DNA of 64,000 bases from Anolis carolinensis (Eukaryota): NCBI RefSeq assembly GCF_035594765.1, contig NC_085842.1, positions 137,343,036 to 137,407,035 on the forward strand, in the 5' to 3' direction. The translations under genes and the position numbers were made by a program. This document shows positions 20,673 to 63,001 of the stretch, piece after piece. The notes beneath the pieces were generated by a model. It did no database searches. It was not told where the DNA came from and saw only the letters and a program-made list of their open reading frames with translations. Position 1 is the first letter of the stretch. Each line of letters starts with the position of its first letter.

Positions 20673-22060
20673 CCACCACATTATGATGATGATATTGATG
20701 ATGCATGGAATTATAAATTATTTTAAATTATTATGATATAATTATGATTATGTATGGGTTATGAACCGTTTTTGAATTATTATTTATTGACAATGAAAGT
20801 GATTTATTTTTATTGTGTCCGAAGTTTTTTCCCCCTTGCTGCCAGTTAGAAGGGTAGGCTCCGCCCACTTCGTCTCCTAGCAACTGTATGCCATGGTTTC
20901 TTGGTTCGTAAATGATCTTTGTGGCTTTGAAAAATCCCTGGGTATCTGCAAAGTGTTGGATTTCTTCAGCCTTCTTTGTCCACCAGATGTTCTTGAGTTC
21001 TCTGGTCCTTCTTTGGACCTCAGCTTTTGCACTAACAGAGATCTTTTTCTTAGCAGCACAGTTGGTGTCTCTCTGCCATGTTTGCAAGGCTTTCCTTTTG
21101 TTATCAATTAACTGTTGGATCTCTTTATCATTATCGTCAAACCAGTCTTGATGTTTCTTAGTTTGATATCCAATGGTTTATTCGCAGGCCTTGATGATGG
21201 AGGTCTTCAGTTTGTTCCAGTGTTCCTCAACGTTTTGTTGCCATATAATCCAGTTCAGTGTGGATTTTATACAGCTGTGTAGAAGGGGCCTCATATAATC
21301 GAGGTCTAAGCTGATAATATAAGATTATAAATATAATATCTAAAATTACTGTGATATAATAATACAGAACAATATAATCTCTAAAATCAGGATAGTAAAT
21401 AAAGAGCAACACTCTGAAAACAGGGGAATTCCAGAAAGGAAATAACCAGGGTCAGCTACCTCCTCCAAACAAAGGATTCCCCCAGGCAGGAAGCAGCCAG
21501 GCTTTGAAGCTGCAAGGCCATTAAATGCTAATCAAGGTGACTAATGGCAGCATGCATACTTGCTGCACTGAGACTATTCAGTGCTATTTAACCTGGCCAA
21601 CCAAGATCCCCTAGATAGAAAACCCTCAGGTTTTGAAGCTACGAGGCTACTCTGTCCCATTCAACCTGCCCAAGGAAGGATGCCCCTATACAGAAAACGG
21701 CCAGGCTTTGAAGCAGCAAGGCTATTCAGTGCAATTCAAATTGGCCAAAAAAACCATTCCCCTAGAATGCAAGTACCCAGCCTTCCAAGCAGCAAGCCTA
21801 TTCCATTGTATTCCAGCTCACCAAACAAGGATTCGCAGAAGAAGAAAACTGCCAGGCTTTGAGGCTGCAAGGCTATTCACTACTACTGTATTCCATCTGG
21901 CCAACAAATGAGTCCCATAAGCCACAGCAATGCGTGGCCGGGCACAGCTAGTAATATATAATATCAATATAAAATAATAATTATAAAAATAACAACGTGA
22001 TTATAATAATACATAGTATCTTAAAATAATAAAATATAATAATAAATATGACAATTATCT

Positions 22061-52000: not shown

Positions 52001-55000
52001 CATCCTGCAATTCCAGTCCATAGAAAACTAACATGCCACAGAGAAGAGTGAGCTAAGCCCCTTCTCCCTGGCATCTATTTTTTTCCTATTCATGTGGAAA
52101 TGTTTAGTGATGAGGCAAGTAAGTCTATTCATGCATATAGTATTTTTAAGGCTTATTAGGGTGGTAGGCAGGGCTTATTTATTAAGGTAAAGAGCTCATA
52201 GACAATTCTAAAGGGAAAAATTTGATTCATATATTATTTAGTTCAATAGCTCCCTTTCTTATTTTCCTCCATTTTATCTATACTCTGCCTGTTTCACAAA
52301 ATTGGGATTTAAGAAGGCTTACAGTTTAAATAAGTCTAATTTCTGAATGGAATGTTATTTCTCATATTGATACTCATATTTTTCCAGTAGAAGAGGGGAA
52401 AAAACATTAGCAAATGAACATGGCTATAATTTATTTCCTCAGTTCACTATTTATTTTCTGACTTTAAGCAAACATCTGTTTTTAAACAGGTCTGGCCATA
52501 GCAGAATGACAAAGGCTGTAGATGCATTTAGTAAGTAAAATTCCAGGGAATAAATTCCTCAGAAATATTTATGATATTTACACATTTCATTGTGCCCAGC
52601 CACAGTCAGCTGTGATTTCTTCCTGCAAAACTTACTGAGCGAGATTCTTAAGAGTTACAAGAGATCTACTTTATTTCCTTTCTGCAGATATTAACACTTT
52701 CCCTGCATTGTAAATGCTGCTGCTGCTGTTTTTGTTTTTGTTGTTGTTGTGTGTGTGTCTTTGAGTTATGCTTGACCTATGGCGACCCTAAGGAAGAGCT
52801 ATCATAAGCCAAGATTTGTTTAGAGGAACTTTGCCATAGCTTTCTTCTGTGGCTGGAAGAGTGTGTGACTTGTCAAGGCTACTCGGTGGATTTTATGGCT
52901 AAGTTGGGATTCAAATCCCAGTCCCTAGCAGTCCCAGTCTAATATTTAGACAACTACACCATGTTTGTTTTCATTTCTTTTTAGTATCAGGACATAGTGA
53001 AATATATTTATTTTTAATATCAGGACAAACTTCTCCCCATGGAACAGAAATTATTTTTGGTTCTCTCAGACAATGGTTTCCTTAGAAGTTTTTTTTGCTC
53101 AGTGAATGCAGACTGTCATCTTAGTATGAGAACAGTTGCAGTTTTTCCATTGTGGTGATGTGTGATGACTCATGGGCCATGTAGTCTCGTTCCTAGTATT
53201 ATTGTGGCAGATGAAGAGGAAAACTTGGGTTTCCCACCGTTTCAGCCAGAATTGGAGCCCTTGCACCTGCAGGATATCTGCCCTCCAGAAGCCAGCCAAA
53301 CAAGCCTTGAGCAGAAATCTCCCCCATTTTCTCGCCAAGATTATTATAATCAACAAAGAGGCGCTCGCGAGGCGACTCGCCGGAGCGCCAGGATCGCTGC
53401 CAGACAATTAGATGATTAAGTCTGTTTCCCTTGGGAAACTTTAGGGAGTCATGCATCTGGACACAGAATGGCTTTCGGTTCTTGTTCCCCAGAGAAAGTG
53501 TTCTTTGGCGGGAAAACGAGATCCTATTTAGGTGTTTGCCCTCGTAGGAAACCTTGCGGAGTCAATTCGTCAGCTCGTGGAGTGAGATCGTGTGTAGACT
53601 TCTACTCCAGTTCCCAGCTCTTGAATCAAGTTCCCAGCCCTGCCTTGTTCCACGGATTTCTATGGACTCAGTTCTTGTTCCACAATTGCCTTGCTTCAAG
53701 TTGGACCTTGTTACGTCTCAAGTCTTGCCTTGCCTTGCGTTTTAACCACGGACCTTGCTTCTCGGATTCAAGCCTTGTTTTCTATTCCTTCGGATTTACC
53801 TTAAGCCTCTAAGACTATGGACAGTTCCCCACACTATTGTTTGCCAAATAGTGTGTGTTTCGGTGAAGTGGATTATAACTTTGGGCTTTAATATCATATA
53901 TTGGACATTGTTTTCCTGGACTATAATTGACCTTTCCTGAAAGGTCTATTTCTGAACTATATTCTACACTTGTTTTTATTGACTTTATATATTCCTTTAA
54001 TAAAGATATTAGATAGAATCTGGCCTCTGCGCATGGTTATTGGTGCTCTGCAGCCTGGGTCCTGACAGTTTGACTCCGCCACCCTTAAGCACCAATTAAT
54101 CTAGGCCAGAATGTCCACTGGAACCGGGGCGGAAGCCCAACCACTCAGCTATACCATCTCCAAGGATGAAGTGGACAGAATCCGTGATATGCTCCACACG
54201 CAGGAGGGAGAAATACGGGGCTTGAAGGAACGCGGAACCCGTCTCCCTGCCCTGGCGTTACCAACCAAGTTTTCCGGGGAAGCTTCCAAGGTTCATGTTT
54301 TCCGTCGCCAGTGCCAGGCATACCTAGAAGCCCGTCAGGCCGAGTTTCCTCAAGAAGACATCAAGGTAGCGTGGATCTACAGTCTCCTAGACGGGCCAGC
54401 GGCCAATTGGGCGACGGCGCTATTTGATGAAGCCTCCCCACACCTAAGTTCCGCGCAAAACTTCCTGGATCACCTTAAGGCGACTTGGGGGATCGAGGAC
54501 AATTTAGAGGCGGCCGGCCACAAACTCCGGCGCCTTCTTCAAGGGGACAGGCCCATGTCCCAGTCCATAGCCGAGTTCCGAGTGCTGGCCCAAAACACCG
54601 GCTGGAATGACGTAGCCCTCAGGGGACAGTTTCGGGAGGGTCTCAACATCGAGATGTTGGAAGAAATCTCCAAGGTGGATCCCCCAAACTCTCTTGAGAG
54701 ACTTATTGACCAATGTTTACGAGCCGAAGTCATGCTTGCCAACAGAAAACAGTGGCTCTGAGGCCAGAGTGGAAGAGCAGGAGTAAAACCTCCCGCTCCC
54801 GCCGGCATCCAACCACGTCCAATGTGGAGACCCCCGCCACCAGGCCCATACCCCAGAGGAAGCGAGGAGGTGCCGATGCAATTGGGCAATGTGCGCCCCA
54901 GATTAGATGTTGCCGAGAAGGCCCGCCGCCAACGTTTAAACCTCTGTTGGTACTGCGGGAACGGGGGCCACTTTGCCAGAGAGTGTCCAGCCAAAGGAAA

Positions 55001-58000
55001 GCCCGCCGCTCGTTTGGCGGCGGCGTCCTCCGTGGAGACTGAGACGGCCGAGGCGGCAGGCGCAAAGCCGGCGGGGGAAGCCAGCGACCGGGCGTAGAGA
55101 GGCTCGCCAACCCGGTCAAAAACCCCACTCAAGAGCCGCAAACTGGGGTCCTAGTGGTCACCTTGTGGTCAGCGAAAAAAGGACCCGTCATGATCCATGC
55201 CATGATAGACTCAGGAGCAACAAACAATTTCATCGATAGAGAGTATGCCGACTCTCTGGGATTACAATATCACGATTTCAAGAACGCCCGGGTGGTGCAA
55301 GCCATAGATGGCCGCCCCCTAAAGACAGGTCCAGTAAGCCAATGGTCTGAATCCACCAGAATGTGGATAAGGGAACACATGGAAGAGATTTCCTTCTTTG
55401 TTACCGAGGTTCCTCACTTCCCTGTGATTTTGGGAATTCCATGGCTGACACTCCACGACCCCAGCATCTCTTGGGCCAACAGAGAACTGCAGTTTGCTTC
55501 TAAATATTGCCAAAACCATTGTCTTGTAGCCAAGGTCTGCCATGCCACAGACGCTGAACCCATCATCACCTTACCCAAGAAATATTCAGACTTTTGGGAT
55601 GTTTTCAATGAAAAGGAAGCCGAGAAACTACCCCCGCATAGGCCCTATGATTGTGCCATTGACTTGGTGGAGGGGGCCCCGATTCCGCGAGGACACCTCT
55701 ACTCCCTGACTGAACCAGAGCAAGAAGCTCTCTGGGAGTTCATAGAGTCAACCCTCCGCAAGGGGTTCATCAGACCCTCTCAATCCCCAGCCGCTTCCCC
55801 AGTGATGTTTGTGAAAAAGAAGTCAGGGGACCTACGCTTGGTTGTGGACTATAGAGCATTGAACAATATCACTAAATGGAACCGTTATCCCCTGCCTTTG
55901 ATCTCGGACTTATCAGACCGGCTTCGAGGGGCCAAGATTTACACCAAGCTGGATCTTCGGGGAGCTTACAATCTAGTTCGCATCAGGGAGGGGGACGAGT
56001 GGAAAACCGCCTTCCAGACTAAATTCGGATTATTCGAGTCCCTAGTCATGAATTACGGTTTATGTGGAGCTCCCGCAACGTTCCAGCACTTTGTTAATGA
56101 TATCTTTCAGGATTATCTAGATCGGTTCTTGATCATCTACTTGGACGATTTTTTGGTGTTTTCTAGATCACAATCAGAACATGAGAAACACGTCAGAATG
56201 GTGTTACAACGATTGCGGGATCATGGACTATATGCCAAGTTGGAAAAATGCGCTTTTGATCTACAAGAGGTAGAATTCCTGGGATACCGTGTCTCGCCAC
56301 AAGGGCTCTCCATGGACCCGGCAAAGGTTTCAACAGTATTGGAATGGCGGGCGCCAACCAACAAGAAAGAGGTGCAGCGTTTCTTGGGGTTCGCGAACTA
56401 CTACCGCAAGTTCATTCCAGACTTTGCCCGCTGGTCTGATCCAATCACCAGCTGCATCCGTGGAAAACAGCCCTTCCGCTGGACGGAGCAAGCAGAGGAA
56501 GGGTTCCAGCAACTAAAGAAACTATTCACGTCCCAGCCAATTCTACAGCACCCTGATCCTAAGACCCCTTTTGTTGTGCAGGCTGACGCCTCCGATGTGG
56601 CAATCGGGGCTGTACTCATGCAACCAGTGGGAGAACATCTTCACCCTTGTGCCTTTTACTCCCGTCAACTAACAGCCCCAGAGAGAAATTATACTATTTG
56701 GGAAAAGGAACTTTTGGCCATAAAGGCAGCCTTTGAAAATTGGAGACATTGGTTAGAAGGGGCCAAATTTCCCATTGAGGTTCATACTGATCATCGTAAT
56801 TTGGAGCATCTAAGAACTGCCCGCAAGTTAAATCAAAGGCAGCAGCGCTGGGCTTTGTTTTTTGAGCGTTTTGACTTCCAGATCCATTATGTAACCCCTG
56901 CTCAGACCAAGCAAGCAGATGCTCTTTCACGAAAACCAGAGTATGCTGCAGGGCGCAGAGAGACCTTCGAATCCCAATTGCTACAGCCTGAAAACTTTGC
57001 CACGCTCACAGTGGGAAGCACCAAATCCACTGCAGTTGAACCAACTCCCTCTACCCCAGGACCCCTTTGTGCTCAAGAAATTAGAGCCAGCCAACAGACG
57101 GATGCCTGGGCTCAAGACCAAATTCGCCAAGGACTACGTTTTCCTTTCTCACTTAAGGATGGGCTACTATGCTACAGAAATCATGTCTACATCCCTCCAG
57201 GACCTGGCAGAGAAAAGGCACTTCATCTATGTCATGACTGCAAGCCAGCAGGGCATTTTGGGCTATTCAAAACCATGCATTTGATCCTACGGGATTTCTG
57301 GTGGCCCAAGATCCGTAAGGATGTGGAGAAATATGTCAATACCTGCCCGGTATGCCAGCGTTCCAAGACAAGAAGGGAGAAGCCCTCAGGGCTACTGCAT
57401 CCCCTTCCTACTCCATCTCGCCCATGGGAGATAATTTCTGCGGATTTTATCACTGACCTACCACCCTCCCTTGGATTCACCACGATCCTAGTGGTGGTGG
57501 ACCTTTTTACCAAGTTGGCCCATTTCATTCCCTGCGATGGCCTTCCCACGGCCAAAGAGACTGCAGATTTATTCCTTCAGCATGTTTTCAGACTACATGG
57601 ATTGCCCAAGAGTTTAGTCACAGACCGTGGATCTCAATTCACCTCTCGTTTCTGGAAGGCACTACAAAAACTATTGGGCATAGACTCTCGTTTATCTTCA
57701 GCTCACCATCCCCAAACGGATGGACAAACTGAGCGCACCAATGCCACTTTGGAACAATACCTTCGCTGTTATGTAAACTACCAGCAGGACAATTGGGCTT
57801 CCCTGTTACCTCTGTCAGAGTTTGCCTACAACAACGGTGTCCAGGCTTCAACTAAAGAAACCCCGTTCTTTGCAAACTACGGCTTCCATCCACGTTTCTT
57901 TCCTTCTGTCATTGAAACCTCAGAGGTCCCCGCAGCGGAGGACTGGCTGCAAGAACTCACAGCGGTGCAACAACTATTGCTCCAGCAATTGGACCAAGCC

Positions 58001-61000
58001 AAGGAGGACTATAAACGCCACGCTGACCATCATCGCCAGCCGGGCCCCGAAATCAAGGTAGGAGATCGGGTTCTTCTGTCCACTCGCTTTTTGCCCTCCC
58101 ACCGTCCCTGCCGGAAGCTAGATGCCCGTTTCATTGGTCCCTATCCAGTGGTGGCGCAACTTAACCCCGTGACTTTCAAACTCCAACTTCCGCGCTCTAT
58201 GCGCATTCATCCAGTGTTTCATCGCTCTCTGCTCCTTCCGGCGGATGGTGTGCGCCCTGATGCAGACCGGCCGGCCCCCACCCCTGTTTTGGTGGATGGG
58301 GAGGAGGAATTCGAGGTTCAGGACATTTTGGATTCCCGCTTCCACCGCTGCCGCCTTCAGTATCTCATTGACTGGGTGGGTTTTGGCCCCGAAGAACGCT
58401 CTTGGGAAGACGCCTCCACAGTCCATGCCCCCGACCTAGTCCGCCGCTTCCATCAGGCCTACCCTGCCAAGCCGCGGCCCCGCACCTTGGGAAGAGGGCC
58501 CATTTTGGAGAGGGGGCTTGAGGAGGGGGATAGTGTGATGACTCATGGGCCATGTAGTCCCGTTCCTAGTATTATTGTGGCAGATGAAGAGGAAAACTTG
58601 GGTTTCCCACCGTTTCAGCCAGAATTGGAGCCCTTGCACCTGCAGGATATCTGCCCTCCAGAAGCCAGCCAAACAAGCCTTGAGCAGAAATCTCCCCCAT
58701 TTTCTCGCCAAGATTATTATAATCAACAAAGAGGCGCTCGCGAGGCGACTCGCCGGAGCGCCAGGATTGCTGCCAGACAATTAGATGATTAAGTCTGTTT
58801 CCCTTGGGAAACTTTAGGGAGTCATGCATCTGGACTCAGAATGGCTTTCGGTTCTTGTTCCCCAGAGAAAGTGTTCTTTGGTGGGAAAACGAGATCTTAT
58901 TTAGGTGTTTGCCCTCGTAGGAAACCTTGCGGAGTCAATTCGTCAGCTCGTGGAGTGAGATCGTGTGTAGACTTCTACTCCAGTTCCCAGCTCTTGAATC
59001 AAGTTCCCAGCCCTGCCTTGTTCCACGGATTTCTATGGACTCAGTTCTTGTTCCACGATTGCCTTGCTTCAAGTTGGACCTTGTTACGTCTCAAGTCTTG
59101 CCTTGCCTTGCGTTTTAACCACGGACCTTGCTTCTCGGATTCAAGCCTTGTTTTCTATTCCTTCGGATTTACCTTAAGCCTCTGTTTTAACCACGGACCT
59201 TGCTTCTCGGATTCAAGCCTTGTTTTCTATTCCTTCGGATTTACCTTAAGCCTCTAAGACTATGGACAGTTCCCCACACTATTGTTTGCCAAATAGTGTG
59301 TGTTTCGGTGAAGTGGATTATAACTTTGGGCTTTAATATCATATATTGGACATTGTTTTCCTGGACTATAATTGACCTTTCCTGAAAGGTCTATTTCTGA
59401 ACTATATTCTACACTTGTTTTTATTGACTTTATATATTCCTTTAATAAAGATATTAGATAGAATCTGGCCTCTGCGCATGGTTATTGGTGTTCTGCAGCC
59501 TGGGTCCTGACATGATGAGAGTTTGAAATCTGGCTTGCTTAATGTTGGATTGTGTTTTCTATAATATAGTTTGTTTCAGATGTTGAATAGGCAAGAAGAG
59601 AGCCTAGTAGGGTGGTTTATCTTGCCTGATTCAAACAATAGAATGTCCTACCCTTATGCCTTCTTATTCCCTATGGTTTCTTGATTTTATATTCAGCCTC
59701 TTGTACTAATAGAGAAGACGTTATTATCATGGGTGAAGGAGGAGTTAGACCAATTATTTTCCCTCTTAACCCAGTATTAATTGAGGATTGTTATGAAAGA
59801 TGTATATGCATGCATGTTTTTTTTTAAATACTGTGGCTTCTTTGCAGAAAGATCTATCAAGCTGTGTGTCACAAAAGAGATTCTGCTGCTCAGCATAACA
59901 ACAGCCTATACAGGTAATTGAAGAACAAATTGAAGGAGCCTCTACATGTCCTTCAAATAGAGCCTTTTTCTTGATCAATATTAGCTTTCTATTATATCAT
60001 TGCTCAATAAAATAAAAATCCCTAAAGGGTCATGGCCTCTTGATAAATGGACTGAGCTGTGGTTCAAAGGAGATTCCTGAATATCTGGACATCTCAGATA
60101 GCTGGGCCTTTCAATTCAAGGAAAGTATGTGTTGTGTCAAATGCTCTAGAGTGCCTAGGTAGCAGTGGAAAATCAAAGTTTCTCAATGCTCATCTGGCTC
60201 TGTCATTTCAAATCCCACTGCTTTTGGCTACACAATGCAAATCTGTAGGCACTCATCCTATATTTCTTTCTCCCAAATTATTTTGTCAGGCTTTCTCCAA
60301 ATGTTTCTTTGCAGCCAAAAGATAGCTTTATGTATTTTTACAGCAAACAGCTGCTCATTTTGATTATTGGAGTGGCTCTGCGTAAAAGACCTTGAGTGGT
60401 TTCCTTGTGCACATTTAAAAGGTTTCGGACTGTGGCTCTTAAGAATTCTTTTCCAACCTATTTGTCTGTTCAGTACTTCTAAGCTTTTCATTTCCTTTTG
60501 TAGGATGTGTTGTATGATTGCCATCTGGTGGCTACAGTGAACCTTATCTGTCGTCTCTTAGACTGCAGCCATATTTTCCAATGTTGTCCTTTAAATATGA
60601 AAGCTAGAAGGTTCTCCTTATTGCATGGAACTTTTAATAGGTGTGATTGTCTGTATTAAAAAAGAGAAATCAATTAAATTGTGGATTTCAGTGAACTTAA
60701 GTGCCTCATCTCAATACTTTGTTTCTAATTTCAAAAACACTCCCTAATTTCTGCATCACAACATCTTTTGTTAGATTTTGCCTAAAGTCACTGTAGACTG
60801 GTAGGATATGAATGGAAGACATATACACATGCTAAAGAACCTCCCCAGTGCTCTAGGAAGAGGAGGCCACGGGAATTTGTTTACATTTGTTATTTAGTGC
60901 CAGTTGGTAAAATTTTATTTTATTTATCCAATCTATATCCCACATATCCTTCAAGAAACACAATGTACTCCCACCCCCAGTTTAAGAGTGGGTATGTAGG

Positions 61001-63001
61001 ACTGTAGAGGTCCAGAGTAAATGTTTCTCTGGGGCTGTTTTTATTGCCAAATTTTACTTGAGTGTCTTGGTGATTGTTACAGTTGGGTATTCTTAGCATT
61101 TCCCTGCACAGGCATTTCCTCTCTGCCTTTCTTGCTGCTTCCTTGCTGCTTCCTTGGGGTAGTTACAATATGCAATGCCACAGGCTATCACTGCAGCGTA
61201 CATTTACAAACAGCTCTGTTAAAGAAGCTACTATATTGTATTGTCTGAAAAATGCTATTCTTACAATTTAATCAACTTTTGTTTCAGGGCCATTTTGACA
61301 CTGTTATCTGTATATATATAAATGTAATGTACGTTTGTAGGACTGAGTAAACAACAAAACCACTGAACCAAATCACACCAAATTTGGCCACAATACACCA
61401 ACACATCCAAGGTATGTCCTTCACTCAAGCCCCCTCCCCCCCCAAAAAACAGATTGGCCTAGGTATAACACAGCCAGGCATTGAAGCTGCAAGGCTATTC
61501 AGTGCAATTCAACCAGACCAACAAAGGATTAACCTTGGTAGAAGGCAGCCATACTACTCTGTACTATTGAAGCTGGCCAACCAAAGATTCCCCTAGGCAG
61601 CAAGCTGCCAGGCTTTGAACCGGCGAGGCTATTAATTGCAATTCTAGCAGCCCAAAAAAGCCATTCCCCTAGAACGCAAGTACTCAGCCTTCCAAGCAGC
61701 AAGCCTATTCCTTTGTATTCCAGCTCACCAAACAAGGATTCCCATGAGAAGAAAACAGCCAGGCTTTGAGGCTGTAAAGCTATTCACTTTTATTCCACCT
61801 GGCCAACAAAGGATTCTCATAAGCCACAGCAGCGCATGGCTGGGCACAGCTACCGTAGAGTCTCGCTTATCCAACAAAAACGGGTCAGCAGAACGTTGGA
61901 TAAGCAAAAATGTTGGATAATAAGGATGGATTAAGGAAAAGCCTATTACACATCAAATTACATTATGATTTTACAAATTAAGCACCAAAACATGTTTTTA
62001 CAACAAATCGACAGAAAAAGCAGTTCAATACATGGTAACGTTATGTAGTAATTACTGTATTTCTGGACTTAGCACCAAAACATGGCAATGTATTGAAAAC
62101 ATTGACTACAAAAACATTGACTACTAAAAGGCAGACTGCGTTGGATAATACAGAACCTTGGATAAGCGAAGGTTGGATAAGTGAGACTCTACTGTAGTTG
62201 TATTATAAGTCTTAAATGTGACCTCTTTGCTTCTAACCTATGGAGTTAGTGCAATCTATAATTTAAAAATTCATACATTTAGTGTAAATTTCAATATTAG
62301 CAACACAGTTTGCTTACGACAGAAACGTAAGAAATGTTCTGTTCCCAAATGTTCTTTGGGAGACACAGTAGATTATGATAGAAACTAGGTTACTTCTGGC
62401 CTTGTATGCAGCAAACGTTTTAGGTTCTAACAAAAGAGAATCAATTCTTGCATTTGTGGATGCCTGCTCCCAAGACAAGAAATGTCTGATTCTCCCACCT
62501 CTTGCATGGCTGACTAGCATTATATAGATCCCTTGGTATACTTTAATACTGCTGAATGCCTCAGTGGCAGTAAAACACTGCCCCAAAAGGGTTTCCCAGT
62601 TATTTAAGATGCATTTCTAGGTTATATGGGGATTTGTAGAAACAGAGGGGAGGTGCGTCTGGCAGAAGCAGCAGGATCCAGCTAGTAATGTATAATTTAT
62701 TTGTTAATTGTATGGTTTGTTGTTGGGCTCCTACTTAGTTCCTTAAACTGAGTCTTATGAACTTCTCATTATAGTATCTGAAGAAATGGTTCTGATTCTT
62801 TTTGAAGTCTCCTCTACTGTGGTGAAAGATAAAACAATTGTGGATAATCAAGTCTGAAATACTATTCTTTTAAAGGTCTGGAATTAACATTCTTCTCTGG
62901 AGTGTATGGAACCTGCATAGGTGCTGTAAATAAATTTGGTAATGAAGAAAAAAGCCTCATTGGACTCTCTGGTATTTTTATTGGTGTTGGAGAAATATTA
63001 G
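40371..63001 (+). CDS. MFSD11: Major facilitator superfamily domain-containing protein 11 (UNC93-like), 5' part; gene continues beyond the window
   Basis: Exons 40371-40466, 41647-41702, 42819-42926, 43984-44063, 47483-47579, 49530-49588, 51424-51562, 52490-52530, 59848-59913, 62876-63001; [36 protein letters not shown]..., [29 protein letters not shown]; frame is continuous across all junctions. Confidence 0.95.
40750..41160 (-). mobile_element. L1 LINE 3' fragment
   Basis: Minus [37 protein letters not shown]. Confidence 0.65.
41753..42287. mobile_element. Palindromic MITE with nested Sauria SINE (41890-42208, minus strand)
   Basis: Long TIRs ggctccttctacactgccacattaaatccagatatctgctttgaactgg / ccagttcaaagcagatatctggatttaatatggcagtatagaaggagtc. 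Confidence 0.75.
45085..45350 (-). mobile_element. Dong/R4 3' fragment abutting a (TTA)n microsatellite
   Basis: Same 3' sequence as 7462-7835 (acacttcccaagtgtctaggactgtgtgatgtat...). Confidence 0.75.
46211..47082 (-). mobile_element. Non-autonomous Helitron with nested mariner MITE (46270-46585)
   Basis: Minus strand starts TC (tctatatatataaatg) and ends with a hairpin plus CTAG; inserted between A and T. Confidence 0.7.
53161..54067 (+). repeat. 5' LTR (907 bp)
   Basis: Direct repeat of 58534-59512; TATA-like tattta at 53525; AATAAA at 53999. Confidence 0.95.
54111..55097 (+). pseudogene. Retrotransposon gag with one in-frame nonsense codon (TGA 54759-54761)
   Basis: PTKFSGE...FRRQC capsid-like domain; the same frame resumes to the zinc knuckle [14 protein letters not shown] and TAG at 55095-55097. 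Confidence 0.9.
55154..58792 (+). CDS. Retrotransposon pol polyprotein (protease, RT, RNase H, integrase, chromodomain, LTR-encoded tail), in the -1 frame relative to gag
   Basis: AMIDSGA, YLDD, ADASD, HHCC zinc finger plus DDE triad, GPY, chromodomain [27 protein letters not shown]; uninterrupted 1212-aa ORF. Confidence 0.95.
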   Translation: MVTLWSAKKGPVMIHAMIDSGATNNFIDREYADSLGLQYHDFKNARVVQAIDGRPLKTGPVSQWSESTRMWIREHMEEISFFVTEVPHFPVILGIPWLTLHDPSISWANRELQFASKYCQNHCLVAKVCHATDAEPIITLPKKYSDFWDVFNEKEAEKLPPHRPYDCAIDLVEGAPIPRGHLYSLTEPEQEALWEFIESTLRKGFIRPSQSPAASPVMFVKKKSGDLRLVVDYRALNNITKWNRYPLPLISDLSDRLRGAKIYTKLDLRGAYNLVRIREGDEWKTAFQTKFGLFESLVMNYGLCGAPATFQHFVNDIFQDYLDRFLIIYLDDFLVFSRSQSEHEKHVRMVLQRLRDHGLYAKLEKCAFDLQEVEFLGYRVSPQGLSMDPAKVSTVLEWRAPTNKKEVQRFLGFANYYRKFIPDFARWSDPITSCIRGKQPFRWTEQAEEGFQQLKKLFTSQPILQHPDPKTPFVVQADASDVAIGAVLMQPVGEHLHPCAFYSRQLTAPERNYTIWEKELLAIKAAFENWRHWLEGAKFPIEVHTDHRNLEHLRTARKLNQRQQRWALFFERFDFQIHYVTPAQTKQADALSRKPEYAAGRRETFESQLLQPENFATLTVGSTKSTAVEPTPSTPGPLCAQEIRASQQTDAWAQDQIRQGLRFPFSLKDGLLCYRNHVYIPPGPGREKALHLCHDCKPAGHFGLFKTMHLILRDFWWPKIRKDVEKYVNTCPVCQRSKTRREKPSGLLHPLPTPSRPWEIISADFITDLPPSLGFTTILVVVDLFTKLAHFIPCDGLPTAKETADLFLQHVFRLHGLPKSLVTDRGSQFTSRFWKALQKLLGIDSRLSSAHHPQTDGQTERTNATLEQYLRCYVNYQQDNWASLLPLSEFAYNNGVQASTKETPFFANYGFHPRFFPSVIETSEVPAAEDWLQELTAVQQLLLQQLDQAKEDYKRHADHHRQPGPEIKVGDRVLLSTRFLPSHRPCRKLDARFIGPYPVVAQLNPVTFKLQLPRSMRIHPVFHRSLLLPADGVRPDADRPAPTPVLVDGEEEFEVQDILDSRFHRCRLQYLIDWVGFGPEERSWEDASTVHAPDLVRRFHQAYPAKPRPRTLGRGPILERGLEEGDSVMTHGPCSPVPSIIVADEEENLGFPPFQPELEPLHLQDICPPEASQTSLEQKSPPFSRQDYYNQQRGAREATRRSARIAARQLDD
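58534..59512 (+). repeat. 3' LTR (979 bp; contains a 72-bp tandem duplication at 59112-59255)
   Basis: Matches the 5' LTR except for about 7 substitutions and the duplication. Confidence 0.95.
61307..62197 (+). mobile_element. Non-autonomous Helitron whose terminal CTAG is split by a mariner MITE (61853-62194)
   Basis: 5' A|TC start; 3' gccacagcagcgcatggctgggcacagCTA[MITE]taG. Confidence 0.7.

Follow-up and report, generated by a model that had tools for sequence, protein, structure and literature searches.

A lizard Tf1/sushi-group retrotransposon with a predicted self-primer in its own LTR

How is reverse transcription primed in an LTR retrotransposon that has no tRNA-type primer-binding site (PBS)? 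The question is raised by an element in a 64,000-nt stretch of Anolis carolinensis DNA (the window). As a sequence-only reading had noted, the TGG that would pair with the CCA end of a tRNA is missing after its 5′ LTR; it does not occur anywhere in 54068–54110, and a full tRNA 3′ end is thereby excluded as primer. A different kind of priming has been described for the Tf1/sushi group. In the available text of the literature on this group and on priming (PMC3601003, PMC6317226, bioRxiv 2022.12.06.519325, PMC4600332, PMC7175516, PMC4340606, PMC2864245), self-priming is given as a common feature of the group, vertebrates included, with direct demonstration in yeast Tf1 and the vertebrate cases resting on inference. 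The Tf1 primer is 11 bases long and is released by an RNase H cut between bases 11 and 12; three duplexes are needed, two of which join PBS-adjacent sequence to LTR sequence. Self-priming and a “pretzel” layout have also been proposed for vertebrate members, namely sushi-ichi of Takifugu (Butler et al., 2001, as cited in these sources). No description of the primer site of the squamate family was found in the literature covered, which did not extend to subscription journals.

Judging from its sequence, the window element is a young member of the Tf1/sushi group. Its putative PBS can pair without a mismatch with a 10-base stretch of its own LTR, so that reverse transcription is very probably primed by the ten bases at the 5′ end of the element's RNA and not by a tRNA. 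The mechanism is a known one, here in a squamate family, and leaves the picture of the group unchanged. What a young, high-copy lizard family offers is predictions exact to the base: a start at G53556, a 10-base primer, and a U5-leader duplex reaching up to the AUG.

Element anatomy and relatives

A full-length LTR retrotransposon of the chromovirus (Tf1/sushi) type occupies 53161–59512 and has the following parts:

53156..53160, + strand: left target-site duplication, TGATG; the same 5-mer is found at 59513–59517
53161..54067, + strand: 5′ LTR, 907 bp, TG..CA, with bounds set by the 3′ copy and the 5-bp target duplication
54111..55097, + strand: gag, with DUF4939, Retrotrans_gag, and zinc knuckle; in-frame stop at 54759–54761
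55043..58792, + strand: open pol frame, −1 relative to gag, with protease, reverse transcriptase (RT), RNase H, integrase, and chromodomain
58520..58533, + strand: polypurine tract region, 5′ of the 3′ LTR (read from the sequence)
58534..59512, + strand: 3′ LTR, 979 bp, with 7 substitutions relative to the 5′ LTR and a 72-bp tandem duplication

The LTR end at 54067 agrees with 73 contigs from one sequencing run (X1), whose flanks past this position are unlike one another. The small difference between the LTRs (seven substitutions and the 72-bp duplication) implies a young insertion. The duplication is perfect, lies at 59112–59255 in the predicted R region, and is found in the 3′ LTR only, the two copies otherwise differing at 7 of 907 positions. 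The gag stop is situated 5′ of the zinc knuckle, whereas the pol frame is open; with this stop, Gag from another copy would be needed. The two frames overlap at 55043–55097 in a −1 relation, with no canonical XXXYYYZ slippery heptamer in 55040–55160, and there is no U1-like donor in 53556–54800. The pol frame extends past the start of the 3′ LTR, covering 259 bases of its U3 (58534–58792), and the polypurine tract is within coding sequence. Elsewhere in the window (21459–21899, 61436–61806, and 6134–46150) lie families of dispersed repeats together with (TAA)n arrays, as is typical of interspersed repeats.

The order protease-RT-RNase H-integrase followed by a C-terminal chromodomain is that of Ty3/gypsy chromoviruses. 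In a quick tree built from 77 RT rows, which did not include Tf1 or sushi-ichi themselves, the window element grouped with squamate elements at an SH-aLRT of 99 and with these fell within a vertebrate group (89); the fungal/vertebrate chromovirus clade holding it was separate from seed-plant elements (support 99), the plant chromoviruses being tRNA-primed. The nearest proteins are A. carolinensis gypsy products in UniRef (P0006, P0007, and P0008, with 98, 94, and 95% identity over RT-RNase H and cluster sizes of 1, 366, and 94 members, respectively), and on this protein similarity the window element is assigned to the same high-copy family. These records carry protein annotation, and no priming annotation was seen in them. 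A scan of viral contigs with a single protein yielded no relative.

Vertebrate Tf1/sushi elements belong to the same clade, and their published descriptions, as far as available, share several features with the window element: a −1 relation of gag and pol, an AATAAA close to the LTR 3′ end, and an LTR end fitting the Sushi motif CNTNACA. The LTR is longer, however: 907 bp, whereas LTRs of the Sushi training set average 572. Tf1 and Tf2 of Schizosaccharomyces pombe (with Tj1, Tosmo1-3, and Tcry1) are described as likewise chromodomain Ty3/gypsy elements with a site complementary to the predicted RNA 5′ end; Tf1 has one ORF without CCHC, whereas the window element has a CCHC knuckle in Gag and separate gag and pol frames. 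Self-priming is described as a group-wide trait of Tf1/sushi chromoviruses and is the expected state here.

The candidate primer site and its partner in the LTR

The sequence-only reading had proposed a Tf1-type self-priming structure built from five short stretches, all of which lie where it placed them: TATTTA (53525–53530), GCGGAGTCAA (53556–53565), GTCAG (53569–53573), CTGAC (54062–54066), and TTGACTCCGC (54070–54079). Three of them define the putative primer and its site:

53525..53530, + strand: TATA-like hexamer of putative function; the LTR has two TATWWA hexamers, of which this is one
53556..53565, + strand: predicted self-primer, the predicted first 10 bases of the RNA, with a pyrimidine/purine start (T/G)
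54070..54079, + strand: predicted PBS, 2 bases past the LTR, complementary to 53556–53565

The pairing between the last two is exact over 10 bp, as had been claimed, and the TATA-like hexamer does lie upstream of the partner, beginning 31 bases before 53556. The complementarity ends exactly at the T/G step 31 bases past the hexamer. The available text of PMC6317226 uses as its criterion at least 10 bp, starting 0–5 bases after the LTR, complementary to the element's own LTR; the window element has such a stretch.

Ten bases is a short match, and the complementarity could in principle be due to chance. The RNA as a whole (53556–54085) is no more stable than its shuffles (z −0.34), although when it is folded the primer helix and a second, 5-bp helix are paired in both the minimum free energy (MFE) and centroid structures. 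Against chance, a perfect LTR partner of at least 10 bp for a 10-mer starting 0–5 bases past the LTR was obtained in just 43 of 20,000 dinucleotide shuffles.

Another explanation is that a host tRNA half or other small cellular RNA primes at 54070–54079, the LTR complement forming a blocking or regulatory helix. The tRNA anticodon loop has the consensus pyrimidine-U, which the complement of 54070–54079 does not fit. An Rfam search of 53100–54300 gave no significant match to tRNA or any other family, just two below threshold. Half-tRNA priming does occur in other LTR elements according to the literature, but the available text of one plant survey places such sites in Ty1/copia only. Relatives of the element bear on both of these explanations.

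Recurrence in relatives

For comparison, 164 loci were gathered. In 18 elements, counting the one in the window, the LTR end could be fixed from two LTR copies, blind to stems; five further loci were excluded for want of a shared CA end. A partner of at least 9 bp in the element's own LTR is present in 11 of the 18, where 0.27 would be expected. Pairing is specific: between the sites and LTRs of different elements there was one match in 306 combinations, and that was between two loci of one family. With sites matching the LTR of their own family and not those of others, a tRNA-type reading would need many different host RNAs, and priming by a cellular RNA at this site is considered highly improbable.

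The pairing is also kept with other letters. The fish-clade elements L006, L007, and L026 pair 11, 10, and 9 bp with their own LTRs, and their primers differ from that of the window element at 3/10, 5/10, and 6/9 positions, respectively (ungapped reading). Covariation of the two 10-mers, which the sequence-only reading had put forward as a check, is thus seen across families, but within the lizard family there was no compensatory change in the 40 of 125 variant rows covered.

No partner of at least 9 bp was found in the other 7 of the 18 LTR-defined elements. In one of these (L067) the LTR end had been mis-set, and there are 10 bp of pairing at the true end; L120 reaches 8 bp; L135 and L163 are outside the clade; and L023, L102, and L132 lack an explanation. 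A further locus, L066, has a candidate at a contig edge only. Loci L086–L164 are eukaryotic LTR retrotransposon contigs within prokaryote genome bins, some of which (L087, L090, and L125) belong to the fish clade or the wider vertebrate clade; contamination is likely.

An unrestricted stem scan, with a candidate in 71 of 107 loci, proved too noisy and was superseded by offset, motif, and TATA controls. In a blind scan of 108 loci from 84 families, ACA followed by two bases and a stem was found in 32 families, compared to 7–9 at offsets of 0, 1, 3, and 4. This was the highest of 320 motif/offset cells (median 5). An ACT control at the same offset, with 17 loci from 16 families, was also above background. 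Between the pairing of relatives with their own LTRs and the offset-2 peak, chance complementarity is effectively refuted and is hardly a credible reading.

There remains the question of what the duplex does. It could be real and selected, with the primer an internal fragment, cut at both ends, of a transcript started further upstream, or with the helix serving packaging or dimerization and priming proceeding in some other way. The window hexamer is TATTTA rather than TATAAA, and some relatives have weak TATA matches (the hexamers upstream of L006 and L007 are poor ones), as such a reading would allow. However, a TATA hexamer lies upstream of the partner in 13 of 31 offset-2 cases compared to 1 of 60 controls (p = 1e-6), and a pyrimidine/purine step is found at 26 of 37 partner starts compared to 18 of 68. 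The end of the complementarity at the T/G step, 31 bases past the hexamer, and the constant 2-base offset from the LTR end, as for a priming site, also speak against an internal fragment or a non-priming helix, either of which is regarded as quite unlikely. The TATA enrichment upstream of the partners gives indirect support to the partner being the RNA start, and hence the self-primer.

Flanking duplexes and a possible course of priming

Two further pairs of complementary segments flank the primer duplex; they are listed here with the predicted poly(A) signal:

53569..53573, + strand: 5′ strand of the 5-bp second duplex; pair probability 0.98–0.99 once the primer duplex forms
53999..54004, + strand: predicted poly(A) signal, the sole AATAAA/ATTAAA of the LTR
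54019..54026, + strand: third duplex, outer helix, LTR strand (8 bp with 54103–54110)
54039..54047, + strand: third duplex, inner helix, U5 strand (9 bp with 54088–54096)
54062..54066, + strand: second duplex (5 bp), 3′ strand, located at the end of the LTR
54088..54096, + strand: third duplex, inner helix, leader strand
54103..54110, + strand: third duplex, outer helix, leader strand, ending directly before the gag ATG

The second duplex (GTCAG/CTGAC) had been read as a continuation of the primer duplex across a 3×3 internal loop. Both strands are present, but on its own the extension is not beyond chance (p = 0.30, and below 0.05 in none of 30 elements); the loop was located as well, with the correction that, judging from the sequence, one U-G pair is possible at its centre, between 53567 and 54068.

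The third duplex, which the earlier reading did not include, would join U5 to the leader in two colinear helices of 9 and 8 bp. Its 17 Watson-Crick pairs were reached in none of 3000 shuffles; by energy it is less distinct (p = 0.085 in the window, and below 0.05 in only 7 of 30 elements). In nested folding to 54200 it displaces the primer duplex (probability 0.04), with the choice varying with RNA length; the two duplexes cross, and the folding program cannot draw crossing helices. That they coexist is suggested by the likeness to Tf1. With both flanking duplexes present in the sequence, the third would complete the Tf1 “pretzel.” Tf1 and Tf2 are described as having the same three-duplex layout, in which each flanking duplex joins sequence next to the PBS to a part of the LTR lying downstream of the primer. 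The primer pairing is 10 bp here and 11 in Tf1, and in the sources available primer cleavage is proven for Tf1 only. As a whole, the proposed Tf1-type self-priming is supported by clade membership, recurrence with other letters, the fixed 2-base offset, the position of the partners downstream of TATA boxes, and the third duplex, and may be taken as the probable mode.

Variation within the lizard family was surveyed in contigs of four runs aligned to 53400–54300; these are only guessed to be RNA and cannot show RNA ends. In the 40 of 125 variant rows covered, the paired strands, TATA, and AATAAA, 76 bases in all, are free of variants, where about three would be expected by length. Substitutions and indels lie instead in the TATA-primer spacer and in unpaired linkers (54030, 54032, 54082, and 54085). 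At 54018 and 54100, the frequent alternative letters would allow additional third-duplex pairing. One group of loose ends, in run X15, has a canonical TATA hexamer equally far from the primer. Among the 24 of 424 loose ends listed, there was neither a poly(A) end nor a pile-up of starts, which has no bearing on expression.

Under self-priming, RNA polymerase II would start at G53556, 31 bases past the TATA-like hexamer. The RNA 5′ end would then fold onto 54070–54079, held by the 5-bp duplex at the LTR end and the 9 + 8 bp U5-leader duplex. By analogy to Tf1, the element's RNase H, a domain of which is encoded in pol, would cut after base 10, where pairing stops at a U-U mismatch. RT would extend the cut 3′ end through the 2-base spacer, U5 (~30–50 bases), and R (~460–480 bases).

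The long R and short U5, similar to what the sequence-only reading had predicted, follow only from the predicted start and the AATAAA at 53999. On this model R + U5 comes to 512 bases in the window element, 306–415 in five vertebrate-clade relatives, and a median of 140 in 25 others; a long R + U5 appears to be usual in the vertebrate clade. It is conceivable, if rather doubtful, that in vertebrate sushi elements the third duplex is a single RNA switch coupling priming, read-through of the first poly(A) signal, and Gag translation. The long R would put the poly(A) signal about 440 bases past the start, forcing a second job on the third duplex: once 54017–54047 is paired with the leader, neither the cleavage site nor the GU-rich downstream element would be accessible, an effect confined to the 5′ LTR. 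In the window element, as in L007 and L026, this helix extends as far as the gag AUG.

A weak hairpin is predicted at 53971–54009 (−7 kcal/mol for 53965–54035), with the AATAAA in its 3′ arm; it is found in the centroid of the 53556–54085 fold as well and is reminiscent of retroviral poly(A) hairpins.
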